A stretch of 64,000 nt of DNA from Candidatus Omnitrophota bacterium (GTDB lineage: Bacteria; Omnitrophota; Gorgyraeia; Aquiviventales; Aquiviventaceae), in the NCBI GenBank assembly GCA_016198905.1, contig JACQHR010000013.1, positions 6,153 to 70,152 of the forward strand, read 5' to 3'. Position 1 is the first letter of the stretch; each line of letters starts with the position of its first letter. A model generated the notes under the pieces. It saw only the letters and a list, made by a program, of their open reading frames with translations, did no database searches and had not been told where the DNA came from. Positions 12,863 to 59,233 of the stretch are shown here, piece after piece. The position numbers and the translations under genes are program-made.

Positions 12863-13472
12863 CGGAGTCGCTTTCTGAAGGTGCGGCAGACGACGGCGCG
12901 GGCGTTGCGGGTGGCTGCAGGGCTGCCACGATCGATGCGGCGTGCGTCCCGTGCGCCACGACGGTGATGCGGCGGCGGTTCGTGCTCACGTGATTCAGAC
13001 GAATCTTAATATGATCTTCGGGCAAGAAACCCTCGAACCGCTCCGCCCATTCAATGAGCGTGATTTTATGCGGGGAAAAAATCAGATCCACGTCAAGCCA
13101 GGCCACCGCCGAGGCTCCCTCCAAGCGACAACCGTCGATGTGCACGAGTCCAGGATCGCCGCCCGCCCCCCCGGCCCGCTGGTCATCAGAGCCGGGGCGG
13201 GCGGCTTTCGTAGACGGCGGGCCGGGGGCGTACTCGCGCATGAGCACGAAGGTGGGGCTCTTGAGCGTCTCCTGCTCCCGTCCTAGCCCGCGCGCGATGC
13301 CCTGAATCATCGTCGTCTTGCCGCTGCCGAGCTCGCCGTAGAATGCGACGACGTCGCCTGCCTTCAGCAGACGCCCGAATTGCTCCCCCAACGCCTGAGT
13401 CTCTTCGAGCGAATGACTCACCAGTTCAAACGTTGATGCGGATTGAGAGGTTGCGGATGATCGTTTGCTCAT
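12846..13472 (-). CDS. tsaE: tRNA t6A biosynthesis ATPase TsaE (YjeE), carrying a GC-palindrome insertion
   Basis: GELGSGKTTMIQGIARGLG (Walker A), SPTFVLMREY ... VHIDGCRL. Between them lies a Gly/Pro/Ala/Arg-rich insert (APGPPSTKAARPGSDDQRAGGAGGDPG) encoded by the element at 13157-13230. Confidence 0.8.
   Translation of the reverse strand: MSKRSSATSQSASTFELVSHSLEETQALGEQFGRLLKAGDVVAFYGELGSGKTTMIQGIARGLGREQETLKSPTFVLMREYAPGPPSTKAARPGSDDQRAGGAGGDPGLVHIDGCRLEGASAVAWLDVDLIFSPHKITLIEWAERFEGFLPEDHIKIRLNHVSTNRRRITVVAHGTHAASIVAALQPPATPAPSSAAPSESDSDAPVD
13157..13230. repeat. GC-block palindromic element, family D copy 1 (inside tsaE)
   Basis: cGCCGCCCGCCCCCCCGGCCCGC-tggtcatcaga-GCCGGGGCGGGCGGC-tttcgtagac-GGCGGGCCGGGGGCG. 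It is the reverse complement of the uvrC copy, block for block. Confidence 0.75.
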
Positions 13473-18458: not shown

Positions 18459-19082
18459 TCATGGGTGTATGCGTTTCATGATGAGAGATTCGAGTTGCGC
18501 GCGAACCGCGTCCACAGACTTGGACGCATCCACGATGACGACGCGCCGAGGGTCTCGCCGAGCCAGCTGCAGGTACCCGCGCCGCACCTGCTGATGGAAC
18601 TGCCGCGTCTTGCGTTCCATCCGGTCGTGCGACCGGCGCAGCCTGGCGAACCCTTGCGCCGTCGGGAGATCTAACACGATCGTCAGGTGCGGCATCACCC
18701 CATGAATGGCGTGACGGCCGAGCCGGTCAAGCCACGGCACATGCACGCCGCCGCCGTAGCCTTGATAGACGACCGTGGAGTCATGGAAGCGATCGCAGAC
18801 CACGACGTCGCCCTTGGCTAACGCCGGACGGATGCGCTCTTCCACCAACTGCACGCGCCCGCCGATAAACAAGAGCGCTTCCGCTAACGGCGAGAGGGGA
18901 GTGGTCGTGTGGAGGAGCAATTGGCGCGTCGCGCAGCCCACAGGCGTCGATCCCGGATCTTGCAGCCACACGACCCGGCGCCCCGCGCGCCGAAGCCGCT
19001 GCACCAGCCACCGTGCCTGCGTGGACTTGCCCGATCCCTCCGGGCCTTCCAGCGTGATGAAAAAACCTTTTCTTTCAGACAT
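18459..19082 (-). CDS. tmk: thymidylate kinase
   Basis: GFFITLEGPEGSGKSTQ (P-loop), the DRF motif (CDRFHDST), and 207 aa. Confidence 0.9.
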   Translation of the reverse strand: MSERKGFFITLEGPEGSGKSTQARWLVQRLRRAGRRVVWLQDPGSTPVGCATRQLLLHTTTPLSPLAEALLFIGGRVQLVEERIRPALAKGDVVVCDRFHDSTVVYQGYGGGVHVPWLDRLGRHAIHGVMPHLTIVLDLPTAQGFARLRRSHDRMERKTRQFHQQVRRGYLQLARRDPRRVVIVDASKSVDAVRAQLESLIMKRIHP

Positions 19083-19110
19083 CAGACCTCAGACTGCAGC
19101 ACAACAGACG
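19083..19110. repeat. heptamer array of 4 units (CAGACNN)
   Basis: cagacct cagactg cagcaca acagacg. It fills the whole cysS-tmk gap. Confidence 0.65.
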
Positions 19111-19962
19111 TTACGGCCTACGCCAGACGACGGGGCCGTGAGCCGTGTCTTCAAGGATAAACCCTGCTTCCTGAAACTCTCGACGGATCTGATCCGCGGA
19201 TTGGAAATCCTTGCGCTTGCGTGCGGCTTCCCGCGCGTCGAGCCTTGTGCGCCACTGTGTCGGTAACTCCACAGGCTGCGGCTGGTAGGAGAGAAAGAGC
19301 CCGAGGACGCGGCAGAGCGAGAGCAAGGCATCGGCGTGTTTGACCGCCTCCGCCTCGACGGTGCGACTCAGGTCCACGGCCAACCGATCCAAGACCGCGA
19401 GTGCCGCCGGGGTGTTGAGATCGTCATCCATCGCCCGCTCAAACTGAGCACGCGCCTCGCACGTCTCCAATGGCGAGAGGGTGCTGTTCGTACGCCATGC
19501 TTCGACGCGATGCAGCGCTTCCGCCAATCCGCGCCAGCGGGCCGCCGCCGCTTGCACACTCGGCGCGGAGTAATCGATCGGACTGCGGTAGTGGGCGCCG
19601 AGAAAGAAGATTTTCAGCGCTTCCGCATTGCCCTGGCAATTGTTCAGCGCGTCTTCCACCGTCGTGTAATTCCCCAGCGACTTCGACATCTTCTCGCCAT
19701 TGACGGTGAGCAGGCCGTTGTGCACCCAATAGCGGGCGAACGGCTTACCCGCGGCGACGGCTTGCGCGACTTCGTTCTCGTGGTGCGGGAACACAAGGTC
19801 CACGCCCCCGCCGTGGATGTCGAACTGATCGCCGAGATATTTCGTGCTCATCGCCGAACATTCGATGTGCCAGCCGGGACGCCCAGCACCCCAGGGACTT
19901 TGCCATGATGGCTCGCCGAGTTTCGCCGCTTTCCAGAGCGCAAAATCGAGCGGGTCGTGTTT

Positions 19963-19996
19963 GCCCGCCCCGGCAGTCGCAACAGGCGGGCCGGGG
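19963..19996. repeat. GC-block hairpin, family D-like short copy (inside cysS)
   Basis: GCCCGCCCCGGC-agtcgcaacag-GCGGGCCGGGG. It encodes the extra PGPPVATAGAG just before the conserved DPLDFALWK. Confidence 0.55.
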
Positions 19997-20280
19997 TGCT
20001 CGCCCGGTTCGATGCGAGCGCCGGCTTGCAATTCATCAAGGGTGCGGTTCGACAGCTTCCCATAGCCTTCACACTTTCTGACCGAAAAATACACATCGCC
20101 CTTCGCTTCGTACGCCACCCCTTTGATCAGGAGCGTGGAGATCAGGTCGGTCATCTCCGGCACGACGTGCGCGGTCGCGAGAGGTTCCTTGGTCGGAGGT
20201 TCAATGCCGAAGCGCCGCAACGTCTCGCGATAGCTGGCCAAGTACCGCTGCGACACCTCGGCGCACTTCGCTTTCAAGTC

Positions 20281-20297
20281 GCTGTGTGCTGTGTGCT
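20281..20297. repeat. (GCTGTGT)x2+GCT heptamer repeat at the cysS frame break
   Basis: Read directly. On the coding strand it is GCACACA GCACACA GC. Confidence 0.85.
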
Positions 20298-20585
20298 ATC
20301 TCTTGTCTGGCCTTCTCGATAATCTTGTCATCCACGTCCGTCACGTTGCGCACAAAGTTCACCTGATAGCCGCGAAACGTCAGGTAGCGGCGCAAGACGT
20401 CAAACACGTAGGCGCTGCGCGCATGGCCGATGTGGGGCACGTCGTACACCGTCGGGCCGCACACGTACATCGTCACCGCCGGCGGGTGCAGCGGCGTGAA
20501 GGACTCAATCTTGCGCGTGAGCGTATTGTAGAGCTTCATCTATGATCCGTTCATGGCTCGGCAGCGAGCGGGTCGCCGGCACGGG

Positions 20586-22027: not shown

Positions 22028-22157
22028 CAGCACAAAGCACAAAGCAGACAGCACAACACTTCCGCAGCAATGGTTTGTGGCATGAGATGCGACTGTTTCC
22101 TACTCAAATATGTCATCTACTTTGTGCTTTATGCTTTATGCTTTGTGCTGTGTGCTG
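22028..22157. repeat. inverted heptamer arrays (CAGCACA / CTTTGTG) flanking a ~60-nt spacer
   Basis: Left array at 22028-22058: cagcaca aagcaca aagcaga cagcaca. Right array at 22120-22157: ctttgtg ctttatg ctttatg ctttgtg ctgtgtg. The right arm lies in the ispD 3' end. Confidence 0.85.
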
Positions 22158-27167: not shown

Positions 27168-27174
27168 CTAGGCT

Positions 27175-27246
27175 GGGGCGTGGGGCACGAGACGTGGGGC
27201 GCGGGAACCGGCTCTCCCCCGTCTCCTGTCTCCCGCCCCTTGCCCC
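27175..27246. repeat. GC-rich palindromic element, family C copy 1 (fills the mlaE-mlaF gap; inverted orientation)
   Basis: GGGGCGTGGGGCACGAGACGTGGGGCGCGGGAACCGGCTCTCCCCCGTCTCCTGTCTCCCGCCCCTTGCCCC. Its reverse complement begins GGGGCAAGGGGCGGGAGACAGGAGACG, identical to the first 27 nt of the lnt copy. Confidence 0.85.
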
Positions 27247-33214: not shown

Positions 33215-33912
33215 CGCTTCCCCTTCTGTGCGTGGACGCCCTCGTGATCCACGACGCGCCCATCTTCCAACACAATCGTCTGATCCGCACTCTCCGCCAG
33301 CTTCATCTGGTGCGTGACGACGACCAGCCCGACGCGATTGCGCTGATGCAGCCCGACCAAGAGCTCGATGACCTCGGCGCCGGTTTTCGAATCAAGGTTC
33401 CCCGTCGGCTCATCGCACAACAACAGCTTCGGCTCATTGATGAGGGCCCGCGCAATCGCCACGCGCTGCTGCTCACCTCCGGATAATTCACGCGGCTTAT
33501 GCCGCACGCGCTGAGCCAACCCCACTTGCTTCAAGCACGCGGTCGCCTGTTCCCGCAACGCATGCGAGTTGCGCGCGCCGCGCACCAGGCTGGGGAGCAT
33601 CACATTTTCCACCGCCGAGAGCTCCGGCAGCAAGTGATAAAACTGAAACACGATGCCCAGCGTCCGGTTGCGAAACTCCGCGCGCTTGCGGTCGCTCAGG
33701 CGGGAGACGACGTGCTCGTCCCACCGCACCTCACCGCTCGTCGGCGTATCGAGCCCGGCCAAGAGATGCAGCAGCGTCGATTTCCCCGCTCCCGATGGCC
33801 CGACGATGGCGACGAAGGCCCCGGTATCAATCTGCAGCGACACGCCCTTGAGCACCTGCAAGGTGACCTTGCCCATCACGTACTCTTTGTACACACGGCG
33901 CGCTTCGATCAT
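33211..33912 (-). CDS. lolD: lipoprotein-releasing ABC transporter ATP-binding protein LolD
   Basis: [27 protein letters not shown] and [11 protein letters not shown]. It overlaps lolC/E by 4 nt. Confidence 0.85.
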
Positions 33913-35114
33913 TCGTACCGCAGCGCATCGACGGGAGCAAGGTACGCCGCCCGCACCGCGGCATAGGTGCCCGCCAGGACGGTGAGAATGAACGTCGCGC
34001 CGACCACCGCCGTGACATCGATGCTGTTGATCTGCGTCGGGATGTGATCGAGATAGTAGACCGTCGGCGGAAAGAGCGAGACGCCGAACGTCCCCTCAAC
34101 CCATTTGACGAAGCTGTTGAGATTCAACGAGAGCATAAACCCGCCTGCAAGCCCTAGACATACCCCCACAAAACCGATGACGCAACCCTGCGAGAGGAAC
34201 AGTGACGCAATGGACAGCCGCGTGGCTCCCAGCGCCCTGAGGATGCCGATGTCTTTCGTCTTCTCCATCACGATCATGATGAGCATGGACATGATGTTGA
34301 GGGCGGCCACGACGATGATCAGCGTCAGAATGACGAACATGACGGTTTTCTCCACGCGCAACGCGCCAAAGAGTGCCGGGTTCAATTCCATCCACGTCCG
34401 CACACGGTATGAGGCGTCCAATTCACGCTCAATCGCCCGCTGGACATCAGGCGCGCGCTCCAACTGATCCACTTTGACACCGATACCCGTGACGACCCCC
34501 TTGGACTGGTAGAACGCCTGCGCTCGAGTCAGCGTCACGGCAATGAGGTTGGCATCATACTCGTACATGCCCGACCGAAACAACCCGCTGATGCTCAACT
34601 GATGGGGCTTCCCATCCACGGGACTGACGAGCGTCACCACATCTCCAGGCTTCGCATGCAGGAATGCGGCGAGTTCGGTGCCAATAGCCGCTTCGTGATC
34701 GGCCTTCGGCAAGTGGCCCATCACAATGTAGTCGCCAAGATGATTGACGCGCGCTTCGCGATCGACGTCGATGCCGCGCAGCAGCACGCCGAAAGCTTGA
34801 TCCGGCAGCCGCAAGATCGCCTGATTGGAAATAAACGGGCTCACCCCGACGACGTGTTCCATCGCGCTGAGGCGCCGCATGAGTTCCTCGGTGTCTTTGA
34901 TGCCGCTTTGCGCATCCACGATGATGTGGGCGTTGGTGCCGACGAGTTTGTCTTTCATGTCGCGATCAAATCCGCTCATGACGGCGAGCACCACGATGAG
35001 GGCTGCCACGCCGAGCGCCACACCGCCGATCGACAGCACCGCGATGATCGAAATGAACCGCTCGCGCCGTTTCGCGAAGAGGTATCGCAATCCGAGCCAG
35101 AGTTCGTATCTCAT
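33909..35114 (-). CDS. lolC: lipoprotein-releasing system permease LolC/LolE
   Basis: MRYELWLGLRYLFAKRRERFISIIAVLSIGGVALGVAALIVVLAVMSGF..., with a MacB-like periplasmic domain and a FtsX C-terminal region. 401 aa. Confidence 0.85.
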   Translation of the reverse strand: MRYELWLGLRYLFAKRRERFISIIAVLSIGGVALGVAALIVVLAVMSGFDRDMKDKLVGTNAHIIVDAQSGIKDTEELMRRLSAMEHVVGVSPFISNQAILRLPDQAFGVLLRGIDVDREARVNHLGDYIVMGHLPKADHEAAIGTELAAFLHAKPGDVVTLVSPVDGKPHQLSISGLFRSGMYEYDANLIAVTLTRAQAFYQSKGVVTGIGVKVDQLERAPDVQRAIERELDASYRVRTWMELNPALFGALRVEKTVMFVILTLIIVVAALNIMSMLIMIVMEKTKDIGILRALGATRLSIASLFLSQGCVIGFVGVCLGLAGGFMLSLNLNSFVKWVEGTFGVSLFPPTVYYLDHIPTQINSIDVTAVVGATFILTVLAGTYAAVRAAYLAPVDALRYE

Positions 35115-35449
35115 TAACCTGCCAGCAGCTGCTGAACGGCTTTTTCCAGAGCCGGCAACTTTTGTTCGACCACGTCCCAGACCACTTCCACGTTCACACC
35201 AAAATATTCATGAATCAGAATGTCTCGGAGGCCGGCGATCTTGCGCCATTCTATCTGCGGCTGCTGCTGTTTCACCGGTTCTGGCAAGCGCTTGACCGCT
35301 TCACCAATCACCTCGAGGTTGCGGATCACCGCATCCAGCGTTTTGGCATCCTGGGAGAGCGCGGCTAATGACAAGCCCTGCGTAAAGGAGCGGATCTTCC
35401 GGATCGCTTCAAGAATATCTTCCAGATAGACTTTAGAATCCCGGGACAT
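35114..35449 (-). CDS. hepT: HepT-family (DUF86) toxin, HEPN RNase
   Basis: 111 aa. The Rx4HxY motif is present as RDILIHEY. It overlaps the upstream mntA. Its stop overlaps the lolC ATG (TAATG). Confidence 0.8.
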   Translation of the reverse strand: MSRDSKVYLEDILEAIRKIRSFTQGLSLAALSQDAKTLDAVIRNLEVIGEAVKRLPEPVKQQQPQIEWRKIAGLRDILIHEYFGVNVEVVWDVVEQKLPALEKAVQQLLAG

Positions 35450-35726
35450 AGACCGTTTCTTTGAGGATGCGCTCTCTCAACCGGGGTTTCACGGTATCTG
35501 CCAGCACCAGATCCACGCGGCGCTGCAATAGCTCCTCGAGGAAAAATTTGAGATCCATATACGCGTCAAAACTATTGCGCTCCAGCTCCACCAGCACGTC
35601 CACATCGCTCGTACTGGTCTCTTCCCCTCGGGCGATAGACCCAAACAACCCCAAGCGCCGCACGCCGAGTTGTTGCACCGCCCGGCGCTGCTGGGCGAGT
35701 CGTCTCAGGATTTCACTGCGATCCAT
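35433..35726 (-). CDS. mntA: MntA-family minimal nucleotidyltransferase antitoxin
   Basis: 97 aa. GLFGSIARGEETSTSDVDVLVEL matches the GSxxRG...SDxD nucleotidyltransferase motif. Confidence 0.8.
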   Translation of the reverse strand: MDRSEILRRLAQQRRAVQQLGVRRLGLFGSIARGEETSTSDVDVLVELERNSFDAYMDLKFFLEELLQRRVDLVLADTVKPRLRERILKETVYVPGF

Positions 35727-35778
35727 TCTTCACCTCGTTGCAGTGGATGCCCAACCACAGCTCGTACCGCATCGATTA

Positions 35779-35800
35779 GCACACAGCACACAGCACACAG
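35779..35800. repeat. GCACACA x3 perfect heptamer tandem
   Basis: Read directly, in the lysS-mntA gap. Confidence 0.85.
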
Positions 35801-35896: not shown

Positions 35897-37405
35897 TCAT
35901 GAGATTTCAGGTTTCAGTAAAGGAAAAAGAATGACGTCCTTGATCGAGGGTTGGTTCAGCAGAATCATCGCGAGGCGGTCGACGCCGACGCCAAGGCCGC
36001 CGGCCGGCGGCATGCCGTATTCGAGCGCCGTCACAAAGTCTTCATCAATCACCCGCCTTTGGGGCGTGGGGCGTGGGGCGTGGGGCGTGGGAGAACTGGT
36101 TTTCCCTCGCCCCCCGTCTCCCGCCCCCTGCCCCTCTAGCTGAGCTTCGAATCGGCGACGCTGCTCGATCGGATCATTCAACTCGGAGTACGCATTCGCC
36201 ACTTCCATGCCGCCGATGTAGAGCTCAAAACGCTCCGTGATGAGTGGATTGTCAGGTTTGCTCTTGGCTAGCGGCGACAACTCCGTCCAATAATCCACCA
36301 CGAAGAGCGGTTTCGATTTCGTCTTCGGGGAAAAGAGCTGCTCGGTCAGTCGGACGAGTTGGGAGCGGTTCAGTTCCTTGACCTGCATCCCCTTGCGCTG
36401 CAGGACCGTTTGCATCTCTTCGAGCGAGGACTGCGGCGTCAACCCCATCTCTTCCATCGCCTTGGCGAATGACACGCGCTCCCACGGCGGTGTGAGATCA
36501 ATCGGCTGACCTTGATACTCACATTGGAGCGAGCCGACGAGCGTTTTGGCCGCGTCGCAAATGAGCTCCTGCACGAAGTCCATCATGAACGCGCAGTCTT
36601 GATACGCCGCGTACGCCTCGAGCATCGTGAATTCCGGATTGTGCTGCGTCGAGAGGCCTTCATTGCGAAAGCAGCGGTTGATTTCATACACGCGTTCCAG
36701 TCCTCCAACGAGCAGCTTCTTGAGATACAGCTCCGGCGCGAGGCGCAGATAGAAATCCGCATCGAGCGCGTTGTGATGCGTGACGAACGGCTCGCCCGCG
36801 GCGCCCCCGGCGATAGGATGCATCATCGGCGTTTCGACTTCGAGAAATCCACGGCGCTCCAGCGTGCGCCGCAGCGACGCCAGCAACTGGCTGCGCTGGA
36901 AGAAGACTTTCCGTACCGGCTCATTGGCGATGAGATCAAGATACCGCTGGCGATAGCGGATCTCGACGTCCTTGAGCCCATGCCACTTCTCCGGCATCGG
37001 TCGCAAGGCCTTCGCCAATATGGTAAAGCGATCCACCTGCACCGTCACTTCATCGGTCTTCGTGCGAAAGAGCGCGCCGGTCACTCCGATAATGTCGCCC
37101 AGGTCCAGCTCGCCGAAAAGTGTAAACGCCTCATCGCCCACGCGATCCTTCTTGACACACATCTGAATCTTGCCGCTGGCGTCCCGCAGATCGGCGAAGT
37201 TCAGTTTGCCCATCGTCCGTTTGGCGCAGAGGCGGCCGGCCGTGCTAACCGACTTGCCCTCGGTGAACCCCGCCACCAACGTCTGGATCGGCTCAGCCTT
37301 CGGAAACGCGGCTCCATACGGAACGATTCCTTGCCGCTCGAGCGCATGCAGCTTGTCGCGGCGGGTGCGGGCTTGTTCGTTCAGATCAGGGTCGTTGTAA
37401 GCCAT
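35897..37405 (-). CDS. lysS: lysine--tRNA ligase (class II), carrying a palindromic-element insertion
   Basis: MAYNDPDLNEQARTRRDKL..., an OB-fold, and class II motifs (FLEVETPMMH; CFRNEG; GGLGVGVDRLAM). The start is ATG 37405. The insert GQGAGDGGRGKTSSPTPHAPRPTPQRR lies between RFEAQ and IDEDFVTALEYGMPP. Confidence 0.92.
   Translation of the reverse strand: MAYNDPDLNEQARTRRDKLHALERQGIVPYGAAFPKAEPIQTLVAGFTEGKSVSTAGRLCAKRTMGKLNFADLRDASGKIQMCVKKDRVGDEAFTLFGELDLGDIIGVTGALFRTKTDEVTVQVDRFTILAKALRPMPEKWHGLKDVEIRYRQRYLDLIANEPVRKVFFQRSQLLASLRRTLERRGFLEVETPMMHPIAGGAAGEPFVTHHNALDADFYLRLAPELYLKKLLVGGLERVYEINRCFRNEGLSTQHNPEFTMLEAYAAYQDCAFMMDFVQELICDAAKTLVGSLQCEYQGQPIDLTPPWERVSFAKAMEEMGLTPQSSLEEMQTVLQRKGMQVKELNRSQLVRLTEQLFSPKTKSKPLFVVDYWTELSPLAKSKPDNPLITERFELYIGGMEVANAYSELNDPIEQRRRFEAQLEGQGAGDGGRGKTSSPTPHAPRPTPQRRVIDEDFVTALEYGMPPAGGLGVGVDRLAMILLNQPSIKDVILFPLLKPEIS
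36061..36134. repeat. GC-rich palindromic element, family C copy 2 (inside lysS)
   Basis: (GGGGCGT)x4 GGGAGAACTGGTTTTCCCTCGCCCCCCGTCTCCCGCCCCCTGCCCC. The centre GGTTTTCCCTCGCCCC is shared with the lnt copy. The left arm has become a perfect heptamer tandem. Confidence 0.85.
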
Positions 37406-37605: not shown

Positions 37606-39297
37606 TTATCGAAGACGTGCTATCATCCAACCGAGGATGCCGATGAGGCAAGCCCAAGCGAACCAGTCACCCCAACGCTCATAGAGGGTGCGGGTGTAGC
37701 TCAGCGGGACATCACACGCGTGCGTGCCGGCAATGAAGAGTTCGCGACCCTGTTCATCGTGAACGCTTCCAAGAATGCGACCGGCGGGATCGATGCAGCC
37801 GGACCATCCCGTGTTGGCCGCGCGCACCACCGGCACCCGCAGCTCCACCGCGCGGAAGATCGAGGTCTGCGCGTGCTGATAGGCCGCCGCCGTCGGCCCG
37901 AACCACGCGTCGTTGGTGATGACCACCAGCATCCGCGCCCCTTCTTGGACAAACCGTCGCGCAAGCTCAGGAAACACATCTTCGAAACAGATGAGGACGC
38001 TGAACGGGGGCAAGGGGCGGGAGACAGGAGACGTGGGAAAACCGGTTTTCCCTCGCCCCTCGTCTCTCGCCCCCCGCCCCAGCACATCAGCTTCTTGCTC
38101 AATATGAAATACGGTGTGGTGATGCCCACGATCGAAGTCGCCGATCGGCGGCAACAGGCGGCGCAGCCACGGCAAGGTGCGTTCAAAGGGCACGAACTCG
38201 CCGAACGGGACCAGGTGCAGCTTGTCATAGCGCTGATCGATGACGCCGCGATGATCGACGAGTGCTGCGCTGTTGGTCATCATCCACTCCACGCCATCAA
38301 GATGTCCCATTGGAGCGCCCACCAACAGGGGTGCTTTCACCGACTTGGCAAGCGCAAAGACGCGCTGCGTGATCTCCTCATCGAGCCCGAAATAGCCCGG
38401 CACGGAAGTCTCCGGCCAGACGATGAGATCAGGCTCGGTGCGCGCAGCTTCACGCGTGAGCGTTTCGTACTGCGTCAAGATCCGCTCCTGGAACGCTTCG
38501 TCCCATTTCTCAGTTTGAGGGATGTTGCCCTGCGCCACCGCTACCCTGATCGATGAGGCATCGACGATGCTGCTGATGCGCCACGCGCCGTAGCCAAGCC
38601 CAATGAGGACGAGGATCATGACGCACGCCGCGCGAATAAGAACGGATTGTGTGCGTTTTCCGCCCCCCACCCCCCCGGCCCGCCGATTACTACCGTCGGG
38701 GCGGGCCCGCCCCCTGCCCCAAACTGTCGTGCTGATGTAGTCCGCAATCGCCGCATTCCCCATCACGATCAGGAACGATATCCCCCACGCGCCGGTCAGA
38801 TCTGCGAACTGAATGAGCGGCCGCCACGACGTCTGCGAATACGCCAGCAGATTCCAGCCCATCCCCGTGAGGACGTGGCTGCGCGCAAACTCCAGCGTCA
38901 CCCACAGCGCAGGAATCACAATCAGACTCCGGACACCAGATCTCAGACCACAGACAAACCTACCCTGATGTCTGATGTCTGATGTCTGATGTCTGACGAC
39001 GCACCAGCCGAAGATCCCGAAATAGAGCGCGAGGTACGCGCACAGCACGAGCCACCCGACGACGGTGACATAGATCAGCCACCACATCGAGCCGAGGAAG
39101 AACAGTGCACCGATGAGATACGACCACCAAAACGCCGCGCGCGATGACGTCGTGCGCAACAGCAACAGCCACGGAACGAAAGCAATCCACGCGCACCAGG
39201 GCTGATTGAAATTCGGAAATGACAGGACGAGCAGGATGGCGCTACTGAGCGCCGGCAACAGAGGACGAACGATGCGGGACAAACGACGCGTGGTCAA
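37606..39297 (-). CDS. lnt: apolipoprotein N-acyltransferase, carrying three repeat-derived insertions
   Basis: N-terminal multi-TM region plus a CN-hydrolase domain with E/K/C motifs (VWPETSVPG; YDKLHLVPFGE; VLICFED). The suggested start is TTG 39297, which overlaps the upstream stop (TTGA). The ORF-track Met at 39393 would overlap the upstream gene by 100 nt. Confidence 0.85.
   Translation of the reverse strand: MTTRRLSRIVRPLLPALSSAILLVLSFPNFNQPWCAWIAFVPWLLLLRTTSSRAAFWWSYLIGALFFLGSMWWLIYVTVVGWLVLCAYLALYFGIFGWCVVRHQTSDIRHQGRFVCGLRSGVRSLIVIPALWVTLEFARSHVLTGMGWNLLAYSQTSWRPLIQFADLTGAWGISFLIVMGNAAIADYISTTVWGRGRARPDGSNRRAGGVGGGKRTQSVLIRAACVMILVLIGLGYGAWRISSIVDASSIRVAVAQGNIPQTEKWDEAFQERILTQYETLTREAARTEPDLIVWPETSVPGYFGLDEEITQRVFALAKSVKAPLLVGAPMGHLDGVEWMMTNSAALVDHRGVIDQRYDKLHLVPFGEFVPFERTLPWLRRLLPPIGDFDRGHHHTVFHIEQEADVLGRGARDEGRGKTGFPTSPVSRPLPPFSVLICFEDVFPELARRFVQEGARMLVVITNDAWFGPTAAAYQHAQTSIFRAVELRVPVVRAANTGWSGCIDPAGRILGSVHDEQGRELFIAGTHACDVPLSYTRTLYERWGDWFAWACLIGILGWMIARLR
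38006..38080. repeat. GC-rich palindromic element, family C copy 3 (inside lnt; 75 bp)
   Basis: GGGGGCAAGGGGCGGGAGACAGGAGACGTGGGAAAACCGGTTTTCCCTCGCCCCTCGTCTCTCGCCCCCCGCCCC. This is an imperfect palindrome centred on AACCGGTT. Confidence 0.85.
38660..38720. repeat. GC-block palindromic element, family D copy 2 (inside lnt)
   Basis: CCGCCCCCCACCCCCCCGGCCCGCC-gattactaccgtc-GGGGCGGGCCCGCCCCCTGCCCC. Confidence 0.7.
38923..39000. repeat. inverted heptamer arrays (CAGACNN / TGATGTC) inside lnt
   Basis: Left array at 38923-38957: cagactc cggacac cagatct cagacca cagacaa. Right array at 38966-39000: tgatgtc x4 perfect, then tgacgac. The module is 78 nt (26 codons) and the frame stays open. Confidence 0.85.
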
Positions 39298-39935
39298 TAG
39301 CTCGACGAATGTTGCAATTGCTGTTGCGACTTCCAGACGCCATACCCGACGAGCGATCCCCAGATCGCGCCATGCAGCACGCTGAAGTACCACGGCTTAA
39401 ACGCGAGCCACCACCAGAACGATCCGGCGCATCCGCTCACGGCGCCGATCAGGACATGTGTCAGTAACCGCCGGCTCTTCAACAGGCCGCACGCCGCCGC
39501 GAGGAGTACGAACACCGATCCCGCGAGTCCAAAAGCTTGGAAGAGCGTCCACAGCGTTTCGAGCTCGAGCCGAAACGGCCACAGCGCCCGCAGGATGTCT
39601 TCTCGAGACAACCCAGCGATATCGCCAGACCAGAGTTTGACGGAACTGACATAGAGGCTAATCGGAATATAGGGAATCCATCCGCAGATGATGCCGCTGA
39701 CCGGCACACCCACCCATCGCATCCAGAGAGGTTTCTTCGAAAGCCTTGCGGCGAGTCCCACGCCCACGAGGGCCAGCAATGCGCCGTGGGCCGCTCCCGC
39801 CGGCACGATGTGCCAAGTGAACTGCCCACTAAACACGTCCGACGGCACGGGAAACTTGGCATAGCACCACCACGCATTGATCGCCCCACCCACTCCGCCC
39901 ATCAATCCGATCAGACCAAGCGCACGAGCTCTCAT
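39294..39935 (-). CDS. hypothetical multi-pass membrane protein
   Basis: 213-aa ORF with about 6 hydrophobic segments. It is co-directional and tightly packed with its neighbours. I recognise no motif. Confidence 0.5.
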   Translation of the reverse strand: MRARALGLIGLMGGVGGAINAWWCYAKFPVPSDVFSGQFTWHIVPAGAAHGALLALVGVGLAARLSKKPLWMRWVGVPVSGIICGWIPYIPISLYVSSVKLWSGDIAGLSREDILRALWPFRLELETLWTLFQAFGLAGSVFVLLAAACGLLKSRRLLTHVLIGAVSGCAGSFWWWLAFKPWYFSVLHGAIWGSLVGYGVWKSQQQLQHSSSY

Positions 39936-39960
39936 CGGTGGGCCTTATTCCAACCACCCG

Positions 39961-39997
39961 CACGCCAGCACGTCTGCACGTCTACACGTATGCACGG
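39961..39997. repeat. octamer array (CACGTCTN family, same units as 10273-10335)
   Basis: cacgccag cacgtctg cacgtcta cacgtatg cacgg. It lies in the secA-downstream gap. Confidence 0.8.
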
Positions 39998-39999: not shown

Positions 40000-42900
40000 C
40001 TATTGCCCATGACACTTCTTGTACTTCTTATTGCTACCGCACGGGCAGGGCTCGTTGCGACCGACTTTGGGGCCTGTGTGTTGCGTTGGACTTCGAGGCT
40101 GGAGGCTGGAGGCTGGAGGCTGGAGGCGTTTCTCCGAAGCTTGGAGCCTGGAGCCTGGAGCCGAACCTATTGGAAGCGTTGATGCTTCATCAGTGAGAGG
40201 AGCGGGAATGAAGCGCGCGGCTTCCGAGGCCTCGGGATGGACTTCTTGCACCGGCGTTCTAGCGAACACGCTGACAGGGCGCGCCTCAGCCGCAACGGGC
40301 TGTACACGCAACAGCATCGTCAGCGAATCCAGCTTGATGGACTCGATCATCACTTGAAACAATTCGTGGGCTTCGCGCTGATATTCGACGACGGGATCGC
40401 GCTGGCCGTAGGCGCGCAAGTGGATGCCTTCGCGCAACGCATCCATCATGTAGAGATGGTCTTTCCATTTTTGATCCATGATCGAGAGCAGGACGGTGCG
40501 CTCCAGCTGCGCCATCATCTCCGGGCCGATCGAGACCCGCTTCGCCTCATAGGCCTGCTCGAAGGCGTGCGTGATGGCCGCGCCAATGGCGTCGCGGTCT
40601 GCGATCGTCGCTTCTTCGCCGAGCGTCACCATGAACTGGCGGCCGGCGGCTTCGCGCAACCCGGCGAGGTCCCAGGCATCCGATCGCAGTTCGTTGGAGG
40701 CAAACGTGCTAAGCAGGCCATCGGCGACCTCTTTGATGATTTCGCGGACAAGACCCTGGAGGTCCACTCCTTCGAGAATCCGACGGCGCTGCTCATAGAT
40801 GACCTCGCGCTGCCGGTTCATCGTGCTGTCGTACTCGACGAGTTGTTTCCGGATATCAAAGTTGTGGCCCTCGACGCGCCGCTGCGCGGTCTCAATGGCT
40901 TTCGAGACCATCCCGTGCTCGATCGGCAAGCCCTCTTCCCATTTAAACCACGGCAGCTCCATCAGCTTCGCGATGCGATCCGAGCCGAAAATGCGCATCA
41001 AATCATCTTCGAGGGAGAGATAAAACCGCGAGGATCCCGGATCGCCCTGACGGCCGGAACGACCGCGCAACTGATTGTCGATGCGGCGCGCCTCATGGCG
41101 CTCGGTGCCGAGCACGTGCAGGCCTCCGACAGCGACGACTTGTTCGTGTTCAGACTCGCAGAGTTTCTTGAATCGCTCGACGATGGCGTGCCGCTCAGTC
41201 TCCTCCAGCGGGGCTTGGCGCTTCTCTTCCTCGGCGCGGATGGCGTCATCCGCCAGCGCTTGAGGATGGCCGCCAAGGAGAATGTCGGTGCCTCGTCCGG
41301 CCATGTTGGTGGCGATCGTGAGCGCGCCTTTGCGGCCGGCCTGGGCGACGATGTGCGCTTCATGCTCATGATATTTGGCGTTGAGGACGTTGTGCGGCAG
41401 CCCGGCCTTGATGGTCGCTGCGGTCTGCACGAGACGCACGATGTCCTCGAGCCTGAAGATGAGCGTCGACTTGGGCGCCTCGCGCTTGAGTTGCGCCAAC
41501 CACTCGCCGACTTGCGCATCCGTGAGGGTCGCCGGCCGCGCGAGTCCTTGTTCAAGCGACGTGCGCAGCGCGTCGCCGAGCGATTCCTTCTTCAGCTCCT
41601 CCAGCGTCCACTGACACACCGTGCTCAACCGCTTCATGATGGGGCCGGGCTCTTTCAGGAACCGCGAGAGCCGCTCGGACTTCTCGATCGAGATCGTGCC
41701 GATGAGCACCGGCTGTCCGGCGCGGTAATGACTGACGATTTCCTGCACGACCGCGAGAAATTTCTCATCCTCGGTTTTATACACCGTATCCGCAAAGTTG
41801 GCGCGGATGAGCGGGCGATTGGTCGGGATGGCCAAGACGTCGAGCTGGTAGATCGTGCTGAACTCCTGCGCTTCGGTGGACGCGGTGCCGGTCATGCCGG
41901 CGAGCTTTTCGTACATGCGGAAGTAATTCTGAAAGGTCACCGAGGCCAGCGTTTGATTCTCTTCGCGAATCCGCACGTTTTCCTTCGCCTCGATCGCTTG
42001 ATGGAGCCCATCGCTCCAGCGCCGTCCCGGCATCAGACGCCCCGTGAACTCATCCACGATGATGATCTCGCCGTCCTTGACCATGTAGTCCACGTCGCAT
42101 TTGAAGAGCTCGTGCGCGCGCAGCGCCTGATTGATGTGATGCACGAGGCGCATGTTCATCTCGTCGTAGAGATTGCCGACCCCGAGCAGCTCTTCGCAGT
42201 GCTTGATGCCCTCTTCCGTGAGACTGACACCTTGCTCTTTCTCATCCACTTCGTACTCCGCGCCTTTGTTCAACCGGGCGACCAATTTATCCAGCTTGTA
42301 GTAGAGCTCGGTCGACTCTTCGGCGGGGCCGGAGATGATGAGCGGTGTTCTGGCTTCATCGATCAAAATGCTGTCGACTTCATCCACGATGGCATAGTGG
42401 TACTCACGTTGGACGAGATCTTCGAGGCGAAACCGCATGTTATCGCGCAGGTAGTCGAAGCCGAACTCGTTGTTCTGCCCGTAGGTGATATCGGCCGCGT
42501 AGGCCTCTTTGCGCGGCACCGGCCGCAGGTGCATAAAGCGCTCGGCCGTCTGCGTCCAGGAGGGATCGTAGAGAAAGGAGAGCGACTCTTCTCCCGGTCG
42601 CCGCTCAGCCGGATCCACACCCTGGATGACGCCGAGGGTGAGCCCCAGCGCGTGATAGATCGGCCCCATCCAGCGCGTATCGCGGCGCGCAAGGTAGTCG
42701 TTGACCGTCACGATGTGCACACCGCGGCCCGTCAGGGCGTTGAGATACGCAGGCAGGGTCGCCACGAGCGTCTTGCCTTCCCCGGTTGCCATCTCCGAAA
42801 TCTTGCCCTCGTGCAGCACCATGCCGCCCATGAGCTGCGTATCGAAGTGCCGCATGTTCAGCACCCGTCGGCTCGCCTCTCGCACGACCGCGAAGGCTTC

Positions 42901-43197
42901 CGGCAGGATCGTACCGAGCGCTTTCTGCTGAATGGCGCGCCGTTGCTTTCTGAGCTCAAGCCGCTCGTCATGATCGCGCTCGTACCATGCCGGATCGGCC
43001 GGTGTGAGGAACGTGTGAGTCGTCAGCTGTTCGCGAAGCCGCACGCGGAATTCGTCGGTCTTCGCCCGCAACTGGGCATCCGAGAGCTTCTGAATCTCCG
43101 GCTCGAGCCGATTGATGCGCTCGACCGTCGGCCAGAGCCGCTTGCGCGCCCGCTCGTGGTGCGTGCCGATCACTTTCTGAACAATCCAATTGACCAT
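40000..43197 (-). CDS. secA: preprotein translocase ATPase SecA
   Basis: 1065 aa. [20 protein letters not shown] (Walker A), [19 protein letters not shown] (DEAD), and the C-terminal zinc-binding tail [14 protein letters not shown]. Confidence 0.95.
40094..40158. repeat. two heptamer arrays (GGAGGCT x4; AGCCTGG x3-4) inside the secA C-terminal linker
   Basis: First array at 40094-40121: cgaggct ggaggct ggaggct ggaggcg. Second array at 40131-40158: agcttgg agcctgg agcctgg agccgaa. Confidence 0.85.
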
Positions 43198-43198: not shown

Positions 43199-43230
43199 CT
43201 GTGTGCTTTCTGCTTAGTGCTGTGTGCTGG
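43199..43230. repeat. heptamer array (CTGTGTG family) spanning the prfB stop / secA start gap
   Basis: ctgtgtg ctttctg cttagtg ctgtgtg ctgg. Confidence 0.8.
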
Positions 43231-46792: not shown

Positions 46793-48315
46793 TAGCGTGC
46801 GTGCAAACGCTGCAGAATCGTTTCGGCCAAGGCGCGGGAGCAGCGACCGGCCCGCGCCACGTCCTCCGCAGAAGCTCGCCGAAGTCCCTCCAACGATCCA
46901 AACTCTCGCAGCAACCAGAGCTTGCGCCGCGGCCCGACACCGGCAACTGCATCCAATGCCGACGCGGTCACGGCACGCTGCCGTCGCTGACGATGAAAGG
47001 TGATGGCGAAGCGATGCGCCTCGTCGCGCACGTGTTGCACCAAATGCAGGACCGGCGACGTCGGCAGCAGCACGACCGGCTCTTGCGACCCTGGCAGGAA
47101 GATCTGCTCGAACCGTTTGGCCAGTCCCATGATCGGCAGTGTCAGCGAGAGCGCCGTCAGCTCTTCGCACGCTGCCGCCAATTGCCCTTTGCCGCCATCA
47201 ACAAGAATCAGATCCGGCAGCGGCAGTTCCCCGGCCCGACCTTCACGAGCGCCGCCCGCCCCGGCTTTCGATCCAGGCGGGCCGGGGGGGCGGGCGGTCG
47301 CCAGCGATCCACTATAACGCCGCCGGATCACCTCGCGCATCATCTGGTAGTCATCTCCGCCGTAGGCGGATCCGCCTTTGGCGGAGATGCCCTGCGCCGT
47401 TTGAATCGTAAAGCGCCGATAGTGCGCCTTGTGCGGCTTGCCATCGACAAACACGACCATCGAGCCCACGGCGAAGTCGCCGAAGATGTTGGAAATATCG
47501 AAGGCCTCGATGCGGCGCGGCAACTGCGGCAATGTGAGGGCAGCCTGCAGCTGCTCGAGCGGGCCGGCAACGAGCGATTTCTCTTTCGCGACGATGATGG
47601 AGGTGAGGGCTTGGATTTGATCGCGTACTCGAGCCGCCTCCTCAAATCGTCGATGAGACGCGGCCTGCGTCATGCGCCGCGACAGATCCCGCAGCAGCCG
47701 CTCGCGCTTGCCCTCGAGAAACGCCACGAGGTCATCGACCATCCGCTGATAATTCTGCGGCGTCACGTAGCCCACGCAGGGGGCCAAGCACTGGCCGAGA
47801 TGATACTCGAGGCACGGGCTCTTCGGGAACGTCTTGCACGTGCGCATCGGAAACACCCGGCGCAGAAACCGCACCGCCTGATGCATGAGGGTCGCTTCGG
47901 TGTACGGACCGAAGTAGTGTGCGGCGTCGTCGAGCTTGCGCCTGGCCACCACAAGCCGAGGGAACGGTTCGTTCGTGATCTTCAGCATCGGGTAGCGTTT
48001 ATCGTCGCGGAAGGTCACGTTGTAATAGGGGGTGAGGTCTTTGATGAGCTGGGCTTCGAGCAGGAGGGCTTCGGCTTCCGACGCGGTTTGGCGCGTCTCG
48101 AGATCGGCCACCATCGTCATCATCCGTGCGATGCGGGGACTGAGGAGGGGGCGGGCCGTGCGAAAATACGAGGCGACGCGCTTGCGCAGGCTCAGCGCCT
48201 TGCCGACGTAGAGCAGCCGGCCCTGCGCATCGCGAAACAGGTAGACGCCGGGCTGATCCGGAAGATGCGCTACTCGCCGGCGAAGACTTGAAACACCGGC
48301 AGTTTGCCCAGCCAT
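46792..48315 (-). CDS. uvrC: excinuclease ABC subunit C, carrying a GC-palindrome insertion
   Basis: LPDQPGVYLFRDAQGRLLYVGKA (GIY-YIG), a UVR domain (FEEAARVRDQIQAL), an RNase H-like region and a (HhH)2 C-terminus. The start is ATG 48315. The insert SLATARPPGPPGSKAGAGGAREGRAGE lies before PDLILVDGGKGQL. Confidence 0.9.
   Translation of the reverse strand: MAGQTAGVSSLRRRVAHLPDQPGVYLFRDAQGRLLYVGKALSLRKRVASYFRTARPLLSPRIARMMTMVADLETRQTASEAEALLLEAQLIKDLTPYYNVTFRDDKRYPMLKITNEPFPRLVVARRKLDDAAHYFGPYTEATLMHQAVRFLRRVFPMRTCKTFPKSPCLEYHLGQCLAPCVGYVTPQNYQRMVDDLVAFLEGKRERLLRDLSRRMTQAASHRRFEEAARVRDQIQALTSIIVAKEKSLVAGPLEQLQAALTLPQLPRRIEAFDISNIFGDFAVGSMVVFVDGKPHKAHYRRFTIQTAQGISAKGGSAYGGDDYQMMREVIRRRYSGSLATARPPGPPGSKAGAGGAREGRAGELPLPDLILVDGGKGQLAAACEELTALSLTLPIMGLAKRFEQIFLPGSQEPVVLLPTSPVLHLVQHVRDEAHRFAITFHRQRRQRAVTASALDAVAGVGPRRKLWLLREFGSLEGLRRASAEDVARAGRCSRALAETILQRLHAR
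47229..47298. repeat. GC-block palindromic element, family D copy 3 (inside uvrC; inverted relative to the tsaE copy)
   Basis: CCCCGGCCCGA-ccttcacgagc-GCCGCCCGCCCCGGC-tttcgatccag-GCGGGCCGGGGGGGCGGGCGG. Confidence 0.75.
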
Positions 48316-56645: not shown

Positions 56646-56664
56646 GGGACGAATCAGTCGTTAA

Positions 56665-59227: not shown

Positions 59228-59233
59228 TTTTGC

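Follow-up and report, generated by a model that had tools for sequence, protein, structure and literature searches.

Three in-frame inserts from different repeat families in the lnt gene of an Omnitrophota bacterium

The lnt gene of a Candidatus Omnitrophota bacterium contains three in-frame inserts that come from three different repeat families. The preferred reading, to which a probability of roughly 0.8 is given, is that these repeat-family copies, found as insertions in loops that turn over among relatives, are kept at permissive places and are, by inference, translated within a functional apolipoprotein N-acyltransferase (Lnt). The sequence-only reading of the 64-kb stretch of DNA analysed here (the window) had proposed three independent repeat-derived insertions in a gene that still keeps its frame open, a proposal borne out by the presence of the three families in an intact ORF with conserved catalytic residues. 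The features are collected in Table 1.

Table 1. Coordinates of lnt, its inserts and related repeat elements in the window.
Feature	Position	Strand	Remarks
lnt (apolipoprotein N-acyltransferase) ORF	37606..39393	-	stop codon 37606-37608
Site 1 insert	38923..39000	-	inverted heptamer-array hairpin, unit CAGACAT on coding strand; encodes about RHQTSDIRHQGRFVCGLRSGVRS
Site 1 perfect arm	38965..38996	-	CTGATGT x4.6 on + strand, 100% matches (TRF)
Site 2 insert	38660..38720	-	GC-rich family D element, partial copy, weak palindrome; encodes GRGRARPDGSNRRAGGVGGGKRTQ
Site 3 insert	38007..38080	-	family C 74-nt palindrome, 7-nt periodicity (GGGGCNN units); encodes about GRGARDEGRGKTGFPTSPVSRPLP
Peptides predicted for lnt inserts and insert junctions			HQTSDIR, GKTGFPTSPVSR
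Glu328 codon	38410-38412	-	
Lys391 codon	38221-38223	-	
Catalytic Cys469 codon	37987..37989	-	E. coli C387 equivalent; coordinates computed from ORF
Family C copy in lysS	36060..36134	-	in frame; one arm homogenised to perfect TGGGGCG x4.6
Family C copy in spacer	27172..27246	+	flanked by ABC ATPase gene and mlaE; shares 87% identity with lnt copy over 77 nt
Family D copy in tsaE	13148..13228	-	in frame, splitting Pfam/NCBIfam TsaE match at residue 82
Family D copy in uvrC	47229..47300	-	in frame in RNase H-like domain (182 residues vs 159-position profile)
Heptamer hairpin module in secA	40095..40162	-	GAGGCTG x4.7 / AGCCTGG, in frame, C-terminal tail
Intergenic array	19075..19094	.	TCAGACA x2.9, unit as in lnt site 1
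Array in cysS	20281..20297	-	AGCACAC x2.4, site of frame break

Identity of the lnt product

The ORF matched the Pfam families LNT_N (3.2e-35) and CN_hydrolase (3.3e-29), with the membrane domain at the N-terminus and the carbon-nitrogen hydrolase domain at the C-terminus, and scored 320.9 bits against the cut-off of 132.9 for the NCBIfam equivalog TIGR00546. The start is ambiguous (GTG at 39393, TTG at 39297 or TTG at 39258); NCBI calls TTG 39258, and the resulting protein of 550 aa (P0001) is 100% identical. The E. coli and P. aeruginosa Lnt structures matched the ORF with E about 1e-28, and HMMER aligned its residues with the E. coli motifs WPE, NKxHLVPFGE and ICYE. The catalytic triad Glu-Lys-Cys is kept (equivalents of E. 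coli E267, K335 and C387), Glu328, Lys391 and Cys469 being invariant columns in the orthologue alignment. An AlphaFold model (pLDDT 90.8, pTM 0.91) was matched by Foldseek to E. coli Lnt with a TM-score of 0.82 normalised by target length and to 8aq4, 8aq3 and 5n6h with TM-scores of 0.81-0.84 (E 6e-27), and agrees with the overall fold of the solved structures, comprised of eight helices and a nitrilase sandwich. The three inserts correspond to its three stretches of lowest confidence, at ORF residues about 143-152, 233-242 and 433-462. The profile score, triad and model establish that the ORF encodes an intact Lnt, the N-acylation activity of which is inferred. Essentiality of lnt in the source organism is assumed. 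Some bacteria with LolDF-type systems can do without Lnt, and only one lolCE-type permease gene was found near lnt. A second lnt elsewhere in the genome is not excluded, only the window being visible.

Location and structure of the inserts

Lnt of E. coli has eight helices with both termini in the cytoplasm, and its Arm 3 is the beta5-beta6 loop (PMC5500888). Alignment to the E. coli protein placed site 1 in the H4-H5 loop. Site 2 lies in the H6-H7 loop, which like H4-H5 is cytoplasmic, and site 3 in the turn ahead of the beta-strand bearing Cys469. The comparison with Lnt orthologues and structures that had been suggested for placing the inserts identified all three as insertions located in loops or a turn.

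Translation of the site 1 module gave the peptide VVRHQTSDIRHQGRFVCGLRSGVRS, as previously stated, and TRF recovered the four perfect heptamer units that had been reported within it. The partner arm (about 38923-38957) consists of a degenerate inverted array; read in gene orientation, its units are GTCTGTG GTCTGAG ATCTGGT GTCCGGA GTCTGAT. Folding of the site 1 mRNA strand gave -39 kcal/mol (z -3.4), and none of 200 shuffles folded equally well. At site 3, arms of 37 nt that are 78% complementary folded at -66.5 kcal/mol (z -6.8). The family C palindrome anticipated at this site is present, but it ends six codons before Cys469 and not about eight codons before the catalytic strand. The family D palindrome claimed for site 2 was sustained only in part: the peptide was as given and the insertion is real, but the palindrome is weak (z +0.23; 112 of 200 shuffles folded equally well), which rules out a strong hairpin for this copy. 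The segment has an arm of 23 nt (91% identity) and the GGGGCGGGC motif in common with the longer copies in tsaE and uvrC. Given the weak palindrome and the limited shared arm and motif, membership of site 2 in family D is only partly supported.

Repeat families in the window

The window contains 24 arrays with a period of 7 nt, compared with zero to two for each of periods 5, 6 and 8-11 and none in shuffled sequence. The 7-nt unit consists of a 6-nt core and one variable base. Arm lengths cluster tightly at about 4.4-4.6 units, and the arms are asymmetric, one often being perfectly homogenised and its partner degenerate. The family C motif was matched 10 times against 0.36 expected, and three copies of the family are 83-90% identical over 49-77 nt. 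Family D is also represented by three copies, in lnt (partial), tsaE and uvrC. Intergenic hairpins of the type (AGCACAN)n...(NTGTGCT)n also occur in the window, and some intergenic modules abut start codons.

Further in-frame elements were found within the 64 kb in lysS, secA, tsaE, uvrC and ilvC, and the secA module family also occupies Lnt site 3 in other genomes. The possibility that lnt is the sole gene hit was ruled out by nine intragenic elements in about 57 kb of coding sequence. A Poisson estimate for at least three elements in lnt was about 0.003 per gene, or about 0.1-0.2 allowing for 54 genes. Since nine intragenic elements lie in the window and triple carriers also occur among orthologues, lnt is not uniquely hit.

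No target-site duplication was seen flanking the three family C copies or at a filled/empty pair of orthologous sites (P0084/P0077), nor was a shared target motif seen at either. A Pfam scan of ORFs in the window (64 kb only) brought up no transposase and no RAYT gene. Thus, mobility of the elements is inferred from their dispersal only. Rfam returned no match in the window at the gathering threshold, with only generic hairpin (miRNA precursor) matches below it.

Variation among Lnt orthologues

In a comparison of 120 Omnitrophota Lnt sequences, column occupancy fell only at ORF residues about 138-150, 229-250 and 434-460, and length variation was confined to sites 1, 2 and 3. All three sites are expanded in 15 of the 120 orthologues, compared with 6.7 expected if the sites were independent, and none in 37. 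In other genomes, numerous unrelated heptamer hairpins are found at sites 1 and 3, and the presence of elements is patchy even among close relatives, with families scattered over the tree; a 69-nt module distinguishes orthologues with 95.2% DNA identity. Peptide periodicity at 7 residues was 0.152 for site 1 and 0.217 for site 3, compared with about 0.07 elsewhere. For site-3 segments of at least 19 residues the best DNA lag was 7 in 15 of 19, and 13 of those 15 also fold as hairpins (z -2.4 to -8.5). In the outgroup, comprised of non-Omnitrophota loci mostly from distant phyla among the matches listed (L016-L083), site 3 is a 6-residue turn in 58 of 68. The length variation restricted to three sites, together with the unrelated and patchily distributed hairpins, indicates that these are permissive sites with fast turnover. 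The earlier alternative of insertion hot spots or unusual tolerance is upheld by these results, for the only variable sites in the 120 orthologues are the three stretches modelled with lowest confidence, unrelated hairpins occupy sites 1 and 3, and presence differs between orthologues 95% identical in DNA.

The modules at sites 1 and 3 could instead have been remodelled in place by heptamer slippage and template switching at quasi-palindromes, in which case the families would be a product of mutational bias, or of gene conversion by copies elsewhere, and not of insertion of a mobile unit. Consistent with such a local origin, the flanking two to three codons also differ between the filled and empty sites of the 95%-identical pair, the 7-nt periodicity is present even in short site 1 loops of orthologues, and the 'empty' site of P0103 keeps array remnants. 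The frequent pairing of a perfect with a degenerate arm and the failure to find target-site duplications, or a transposase within the window, point in the same direction, as does the standing of heptamers as the commonest long simple repeats in bacteria, ascribed to polymerase slippage (PMC4692102, PMC4679880). However, about 75 nt, including a non-repetitive loop, are shared by family C copies at three unrelated loci, and the family is similar across genomes: the 5' arm at site 3 of L091, the Lnt protein of which is only 57% identical to that of the window, differs from the lysS copy at approximately 5 of 48 positions (manual count). This sharing across unrelated loci and genomes requires copying between loci. 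Moreover, free slippage predicts a broad distribution of arm lengths and not the tight one found, and single-unit steps within an ORF would pass through frameshifted intermediates. Remodelling in place is therefore considered possible but unlikely.

A second alternative is that selection acts on a function carried by the inserts themselves, either as mRNA hairpins that pause or tune the synthesis of a polytopic membrane protein, as protein loops with a role or as a four-unit contingency switch for lnt. The strong folds at sites 1 and 3, the excess of triple carriers, the out-of-frame array in cysS and the intergenic modules abutting start codons are compatible with this proposal, and the CAGACAT array has about four perfect units both in the window and in the distant orthologue P0110. 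Nevertheless, the sequences at each site are unrelated between genomes and many orthologues have none, indicating that no particular peptide or RNA is conserved. The peptides are of low complexity and modelled with low confidence, four units are short for an efficient phase-variation tract, and the excess of triple carriers may merely reflect shared ancestry. Strain-level length variation was also not found in metagenome scans: scanning JGI metagenomes with the exact flanks of the site 1 array gave no match, a protein-guided scan for lnt retrieved 50 loci of which the closest was 59% identical, and no near-identical strain was found in these scans for comparison of unit number. A function of this kind is judged distinctly improbable.

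Reading frame and translation

All 25 orthologues compared at the DNA level are open through their modules. Of eight out-of-frame units in arm 2 of the CAGACAT module, six retain TGA, whereas the single in-frame unit has TGT or TGG instead in each of three genomes. Families C and L lack stop codons in all six frames. Net positive charge was found in 88-91% of the orthologues' long inserts at the cytoplasmic sites, with the periplasmic site near neutral. The dN/dS of 0.23-0.40 in related lnt pairs is also counted in favour of translation. The avoidance of stops and the charge matched to topology support translation of the inserts as part of Lnt, an inference made without expression or proteomic data, and the argument from stop avoidance is partly conditioned on open ORFs having been selected. 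Retention of Lnt activity despite the inserts is likewise inferred, there being no activity data.

It is very improbable that lnt is decaying or unexpressed and accumulates repeats freely, with an open frame that is coincidental or a second lnt at work. Three inserts in one gene, a moderate dN/dS of 0.23-0.40 in related lnt pairs and an essentiality that is only assumed would permit this, and the insert-bearing orthologue P0084 has lost its last helix to a premature stop, suggesting that some carriers may be decaying. On the other hand, 550-595 codons remain open with all invariant family residues and a strong equivalog score, the model is confident outside the inserts, each insert has a length that keeps the frame, and there is specific avoidance of stops. 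The same pattern is seen in lysS, secA, tsaE and uvrC, which cannot all be dispensable, and the secA-lnt-lysS arrangement is conserved in relatives. Lastly, it is hardly credible that the inserts are repeat-induced assembly chimeras, even though the source is a metagenome-assembled genome with short, dispersed repeats and the one-unit frameshift at the cysS array could be an assembly or consensus error, since independent NCBI, ENA and JGI assemblies carry similar modules at the same three codon-level positions, reads are longer than the elements (61-78 nt), which have unique coding sequence on either side, and every insert preserves the frame.

Proposed origin and maintenance of the inserts

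In the preferred reading, that of repeat-family copies kept at permissive places of a functional Lnt, short families of heptamer-periodic hairpins and GC-rich palindromes would pervade the Omnitrophota genome, copies of which came to lie in lnt. The inserts would persist because each is in one of three structurally permissive places, namely the two cytoplasmic loops and the turn at the distal end of the catalytic-Cys strand, where Arm 3 of the periplasmic nitrilase domain ends. There they would add only low-complexity and probably flexible loop residues. A heptamer array gives one heptapeptide in all three frames because 7 = 1 mod 3; with this frame-independent heptapeptide and the stop-free families C and L, only a total length divisible by three is needed. 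Stops that would arise in the elements are presumed to be removed by point changes. Selection would purge insertions elsewhere in the protein, leaving the three sites to act as sinks, at which elements are repeatedly gained, lost and exchanged across the phylum.

A more speculative extension, rated as rather unlikely, is that the heptamer hairpins are a distinct class of self-propagating elements that generate new protein loops at permissive sites throughout the phylum and, by slippage of one unit, reversible off-switches even in housekeeping genes (for example cysS), perhaps made or moved by an unidentified enzyme that measures arms of about 4.5 units. Such elements would encode one peptide whichever of the three frames is read, with similar peptides from either orientation, and the frame independence of the 7-nt architecture would allow continual colonisation of essential genes.

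Comparison with known repeats

The inserts have the properties of Rickettsia palindromic elements (RPEs) in being dispersed families, in forming palindromes (sites 1 and 3, not the family D copy) and in lying in frame at permissive positions. One site in Lnt is filled time after time by different families and vacated again; we know of no description of this for RPEs. As described by Ogata et al. (2000, 2002) and summarised in PMC10969869, RPEs are dispersed palindromes, many of which lie in frame in housekeeping genes and are translated. The lnt elements resemble them as dispersed short palindromic families in unrelated housekeeping genes that are (in lnt by inference) translated with the host protein at fold-compatible positions and have no known transposase. 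RPEs are about 100-150 bp with conserved family sequences, whereas the Omnitrophota elements are 60-80 nt and built of 7-nt units, many of them different; the hosts, free-living or episymbiotic Omnitrophota, also belong to another phylum. Based on these differences in length and host phylum, and without a comparison to RPE sequences, the Omnitrophota elements appear to be an analogue of RPEs and not a member.

Heptanucleotide repeats are known from bacteria as the cyanobacterial STRR and as TAACTGA in Beggiatoaceae and cyanobacteria (PMC4679880), and as GGGAATC / GGGGAYT in Xanthomonas and Nostoc (PMC4692102). They are similar to the Omnitrophota arrays in tandem 7-nt units, strong over-representation, a preference for about four units, a mostly intergenic location between co-directional genes that is often directly upstream of start codons without a ribosome-binding site, and occasional inverted pairs or copies at ORF edges. 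They differ in having one or a few fixed units per genome compared with dozens, usually in inverted hairpin pairs, in Omnitrophota, where copies also lie deep in conserved enzymes and in frame. REP/REPIN sequences, mobilised by RAYT (PMC3116915), and MITEs are also short, hairpin-forming, dispersed and mostly intergenic families within genomes, and REPs likewise leave no target-site duplication (PMC3116915). No RAYT or other transposase was found among the scanned ORFs of the window, which shows only 64 kb of the genome, and heptamer periodicity and frequent in-frame coding copies distinguish the Omnitrophota elements from REPs. Identity with MITEs was rejected because terminal inverted repeats with duplication are lacking, no duplication having been found at the family C copies or the filled/empty pair.

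In Borgs, coding repeats run directly in tandem, with units whose length is a multiple of three. In contrast, the Omnitrophota units are of 7 nt in inverted arrays, so that frame preservation depends on total length. Borg repeats are similar in evolving rapidly, arising independently in ORFs and adding low-complexity or disordered segments (PMC9879509). The main genomics paper on Omnitrophota is silent on repeats.

By analogy, the Omnitrophota elements are a new variant of Rickettsia-type coding palindromes, the insertion mechanism of which is unknown. They look like a second, independent case, in another phylum, of repeat DNA translated within protein-coding genes, until now regarded as a peculiarity of Rickettsia. 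The compatibility of units that are not multiples of three with an ORF is explained by heptamer arithmetic and stop-free families. As unrelated elements occupy the same three positions across the 120 orthologues, the results also map, through natural variation, where the antibiotic target Lnt tolerates insertions: two cytoplasmic loops and a turn of the nitrilase domain take 20-30 extra residues.

Slippage and the cysS frameshift

The warning that slippage by a single unit would shift the frame of lnt is justified, since 7 = 1 mod 3, and the risk is real. The site 1 tract resembles a contingency locus in that it is perfect, lies in the ORF and has a unit length not divisible by three, so that a change of one unit shifts the frame; it differs in having only about four units, in a housekeeping and not a surface or virulence gene, with no length polymorphism demonstrated. 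Gene callers and quality checks of metagenome-assembled genomes should expect inflated Omnitrophota proteins and heptamer-array frameshifts, real or artefactual. A concrete example in the window is cysS, which is frameshifted by one heptamer unit; deleting one 7-nt unit restores full-length CysS.

Identity of lnt and its inserts

With 320.9 bits, the lnt ORF exceeded the cut-off (132.9) of the NCBIfam equivalog TIGR00546, and it matched the Lnt sequences of E. coli and P. aeruginosa, for which structures are solved, with E ~1e-28. An annotated twin, 100% identical and 550 aa long, is present in a Candidatus Omnitrophica MAG and starts with TTG at 39258; the next nearest relatives are ~60% identical, likewise from Omnitrophota. 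The window has a G+C content of 61%, and its gene order is a nearly unbroken minus-strand series of housekeeping genes. Between secA and lnt a 213-aa membrane protein is predicted (39294-39935), for which no match was obtained in Pfam or NCBIfam; the stop of its ORF overlaps a possible lnt start at 39297.

The sequence-only reading held that lnt carries three repeat-derived inserts in an open frame. Alignment of the window Lnt with 119 Omnitrophota orthologues (120 sequences) confirmed that the inserts are real, since column occupancy collapsed only at these three places (ORF residues ~138-150, 229-250 and 434-460); the peptides assigned to the inserts were reproduced codon by codon on translation. 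At site 1, a perfect CTGATGT x4.6 array (38965-38996) forms one arm of the module, and folding of the mRNA strand gave a hairpin with -39 kcal/mol (z -3.4). Site 3 folds with -66.5 kcal/mol (z -6.8), the stem having one mismatch per 7 nt; the gap from this family C insert to the catalytic Cys469 is 6 codons and not the approximately 8 proposed. The family D insertion at site 2 is also real, whereas its description as a palindrome was overstated, its folding (z +0.23) being no better than that of shuffled sequence.

Coordinates of lnt, its inserts and related repeat features
Feature	Position	Strand	Description
lnt ORF	37606..39393	minus	Pfam LNT_N + CN_hydrolase
Site 1 insert	38923-39000	minus	perfect array + degenerate inverted partner arm
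Site 2 insert	38660-38720	minus	GC-rich family D element
Site 3 insert (family C)	38007-38080	minus	74-nt palindrome, arms 37 nt
Other family C copies (in-window comparison)	lysS 36060-36134; intergenic spacer 27172-27246
Longer family D copies	tsaE 13148-13228; uvrC 47229-47300 (RNase H-like domain)		in frame; domain matches split
secA heptamer module (L family)	40095-40162		in frame, translated; C-terminal tail, before SEC-C zinc motif
ilvC heptamer module	8676-8722		translated; C-terminal tail of IlvC, after KARI_C domain
Intergenic (AGCACAN)n - spacer - (NTGTGCT)n modules	3470-3598, 6529-6624, 9726-9781, 22029-22156, 35778-35800, 43199-43229, 51518-51599, 59233-59370
9-nt-unit hairpin	56659-56746		units GTTAGGCCC / AACCGGC...
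8-nt-unit arrays	4733-4761, 10274-10334, 39960-39996		GCCACGTG, ACGTGCAT/CACGTCTA, GCACGTCT
cysS	split ORFs 20201..20539 + 19111..20277		break exactly at intragenic AGCACAC x2.4 array, 20281-20297

Location of the inserts in the Lnt protein

The AlphaFold model of the window Lnt, computed from the 120-sequence alignment, had a pLDDT of 90.8 and pTM of 0.91, and its superposition with E. coli Lnt gave a TM-score of ~0.82. The lowest-confidence stretches are the three inserts (model residues ~111-120, 201-210 and 401-430; model residue equals ORF residue minus 32). The Lnt crystal structure has eight helices with both termini cytoplasmic, and the 40-residue beta5-beta6 loop, Arm 3, comes before the Cys387 strand (PMC5500888). 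This topology combined with alignment to the Lnt structures places site 1 in the cytoplasmic H4-H5 loop, site 2 in the cytoplasmic H6-H7 loop and site 3 at the turn ending Arm 3, immediately before the catalytic strand. Outside Omnitrophota, 58 of 68 loci (L016-L083) have a turn of 6 residues at site 3, versus 34 residues in the window, and site 1 in other phyla is mostly 16-17 residues (15-19 in all except one) versus 30.

Repeat families in the window

The three family C copies share 83-90% identity over 49-77 nt, non-repetitive loop included, and the family C motif has 10 occurrences (0.36 expected). Homogenisation of one arm of the lysS copy to a perfect (TGGGGCG)x4.6 lowers hairpin complementarity. 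The lnt family D element has one 23-nt arm and a further motif in common with the tsaE and uvrC copies and, judged from sequence, looks like a partial copy. The latter two contain two overlapping inverted repeats in the order A-B-A'-B', a layout that could permit alternative hairpins or a pseudoknot.

The window contains 24 arrays with a 7-nt period, compared with 0-2 for periods 5, 6 and 8-11 and none in shuffles; one intergenic array (19075-19094) has a unit identical to that of site 1. Most heptamer arrays are inverted pairs with arms of ~4.4-4.6 units. TRF analysis of the whole window revealed that array lengths cluster tightly around this value, ~31 nt per arm, and that a perfect arm is frequently paired with a degenerate partner, intergenic modules included. 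These features argue for a defined element architecture, the cause of which is unexplained. Arrays with 9-nt and 8-nt units are also present, and the periodic repeats are therefore not exclusively heptameric. The (AGCACAN)n/(NTGTGCT)n modules occupy many spacers between co-directional genes, starting directly after the upstream stop codon and ending a few nt 5' of the next start codon, where no Shine-Dalgarno sequence is obvious. Their hairpins have one mismatch per 7 nt, and a role in intercistronic processing or translation is possible.

Turnover of elements among orthologues

Across the 120 orthologues, site 1 was expanded to at least 25 residues in 43, site 2 to at least 24 in 31 and site 3 to at least 18 in 72; all three were expanded in 15 and none in 37. 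The 7-residue periodicity of the peptides was 0.152 at site 1 and 0.217 at site 3 against ~0.07 elsewhere, a signature of translated heptamer arrays that is absent from site 2 peptides. Among the 25 orthologues with DNA, 19 site-3 segments had at least 19 residues; 7 was the best DNA lag for 15 of them, and 13 of these 15 were also hairpins (z -2.4 to -8.5). The units vary by genome (GGGTTCC, GAGTGAC, CGAATGA, AGGCTGA/AGCCTCC and others). Module families C (GQGAGDGGRGK), N (RNSEFGIRNS) and L (GSRLKAEGS...SSLQP), or none, are scattered over the neighbour-joining tree of Lnt, and sister sequences differ in module state.

At site 3, an L-family module of 69 nt sets apart two orthologues with 95.2% DNA identity, P0084 and P0077; no target-site duplication was found there, and the 2-3 flanking codons also differ. 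The insert-bearing P0084 has a TGG to TAG change relative to P0077 that removes the last transmembrane helix; this may mean that the copy is decaying or that the 1.7-kb contig contains a sequencing error. The Lnt of locus L091, only 57% identical to that of the window, holds a family C element at site 3 whose 5' arm differs from the window lysS copy at ~5 of 48 positions (manual count on the alignment). The lysS site is occupied by family C in the window, whereas two other Omnitrophota (L001, L002) carry a heptamer module of family L there and a third has an empty site.

Length variation is thus confined to three sites with patchy and interchanged elements, in support of the suggestion that lnt offers insertion hot spots or unusual tolerance. 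Because unrelated units, scattered families and sister differences recur at the same sites, these are permissive sinks with fast gain, loss and replacement, an additional DNA-level target preference being neither supported nor excluded.

Inferred translation of the inserts

All insert lengths are in frame, and the modules of all 25 DNA-level orthologues are open throughout. Families C and L contain no stop codon in six frames, and the site 1 module is open solely in the frame used. If arm 2 were fully complementary to the CAGACAT arm, a TGA would fall in frame within three units; in the window and orthologues P0002 and P0110, it has TGA in 6 of 8 out-of-frame units and TGT or TGG in the single in-frame unit. 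Since 7 = 1 mod 3, a heptamer array yields one heptapeptide in any entry frame, and the peptides from an inverted pair are similar in both orientations; stop-free units are therefore intrinsically ORF-compatible. At the two cytoplasmic sites, long inserts carry a net positive charge in 88-91% of orthologues (+4 and +6 in the window), and those at the periplasmic site are near neutral (window 0), a pattern that fits the positive-inside rule. In three related pairs, dN/dS was 0.23-0.40.

Origin of the inserts

The inserts are best explained, with a probability of roughly 0.8, as neutral or nearly neutral translated repeat copies in a still functional lnt, translation and activity being inferred. 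Genomic repeat elements would have been copied into lnt by a route that remains open, those in permissive loops would be retained, and Lnt function would persist despite them. The dispersal of family C requires copying between loci. Slippage, template switching or gene conversion remains a possible, though tentative, main origin, for which the evidence against a classic mobile element leaves room: target-site duplication is lacking, 'empty' sites retain array remnants, single arms are homogenised and Pfam scans of window ORFs revealed no transposase. It is doubtful that the inserts are themselves functional, as an RNA hairpin, added protein loop or contingency switch, no conserved sequence being found in support. 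That lnt is a pseudogene is unlikely, and an assembly artefact even more so.

As anticipated, slippage by one of the four perfect units would frameshift lnt, and cysS provides a concrete frameshift at an array: in silico deletion of one 7-nt unit restored a full-length CysS (473 aa) that matches Pfam tRNA-synt_1e in one contiguous stretch (391.6 bits). This frameshift may reflect genuine polymorphism, a switch, a programmed event or an assembly or consensus error, which cannot be distinguished without reads. No near-identical strain was found for comparison of lnt array length.

By analogy, the closest counterparts are the Rickettsia palindromic elements, repeat families that reside in frame in many housekeeping genes, at positions compatible with the fold (PMC10969869). 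The heptamer arrays resemble heptanucleotide repeats of other bacteria, namely the TAACTGA repeats of Beggiatoaceae (PMC4679880) and those of Xanthomonas and Nostoc with units GGGAATC and GGGGAYT (PMC4692102), which are mostly intergenic, often just 5' of start codons, prefer approximately four units and are reported to be under-represented in coding regions (PMC4679880, PMC4692102). Hairpins from many different 7-nt units, regular in-frame presence deep within conserved enzymes and phylum-wide turnover at identical protein sites appear to be new. No published description of heptamer-hairpin in-frame inserts with such turnover was found, repeats go unmentioned in the main Omnitrophota genomics paper, and Rfam has no family matching the elements.

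Neighboring genes

The SecA P-loop domain match (secA 40000-43197, residues 462-747) covers 286 residues where the profile has only ~200 positions, implying an additional segment of ~85 residues with no obvious repeat origin. Directly 3' of lysS, a HepT/MNT-type toxin-antitoxin pair is followed by a single lolCE-type permease gene and lolD (33211-35114 and 35114-35726). As there is one permease gene, these may constitute a LolDF-like system, which is relevant to the question of lnt essentiality here.
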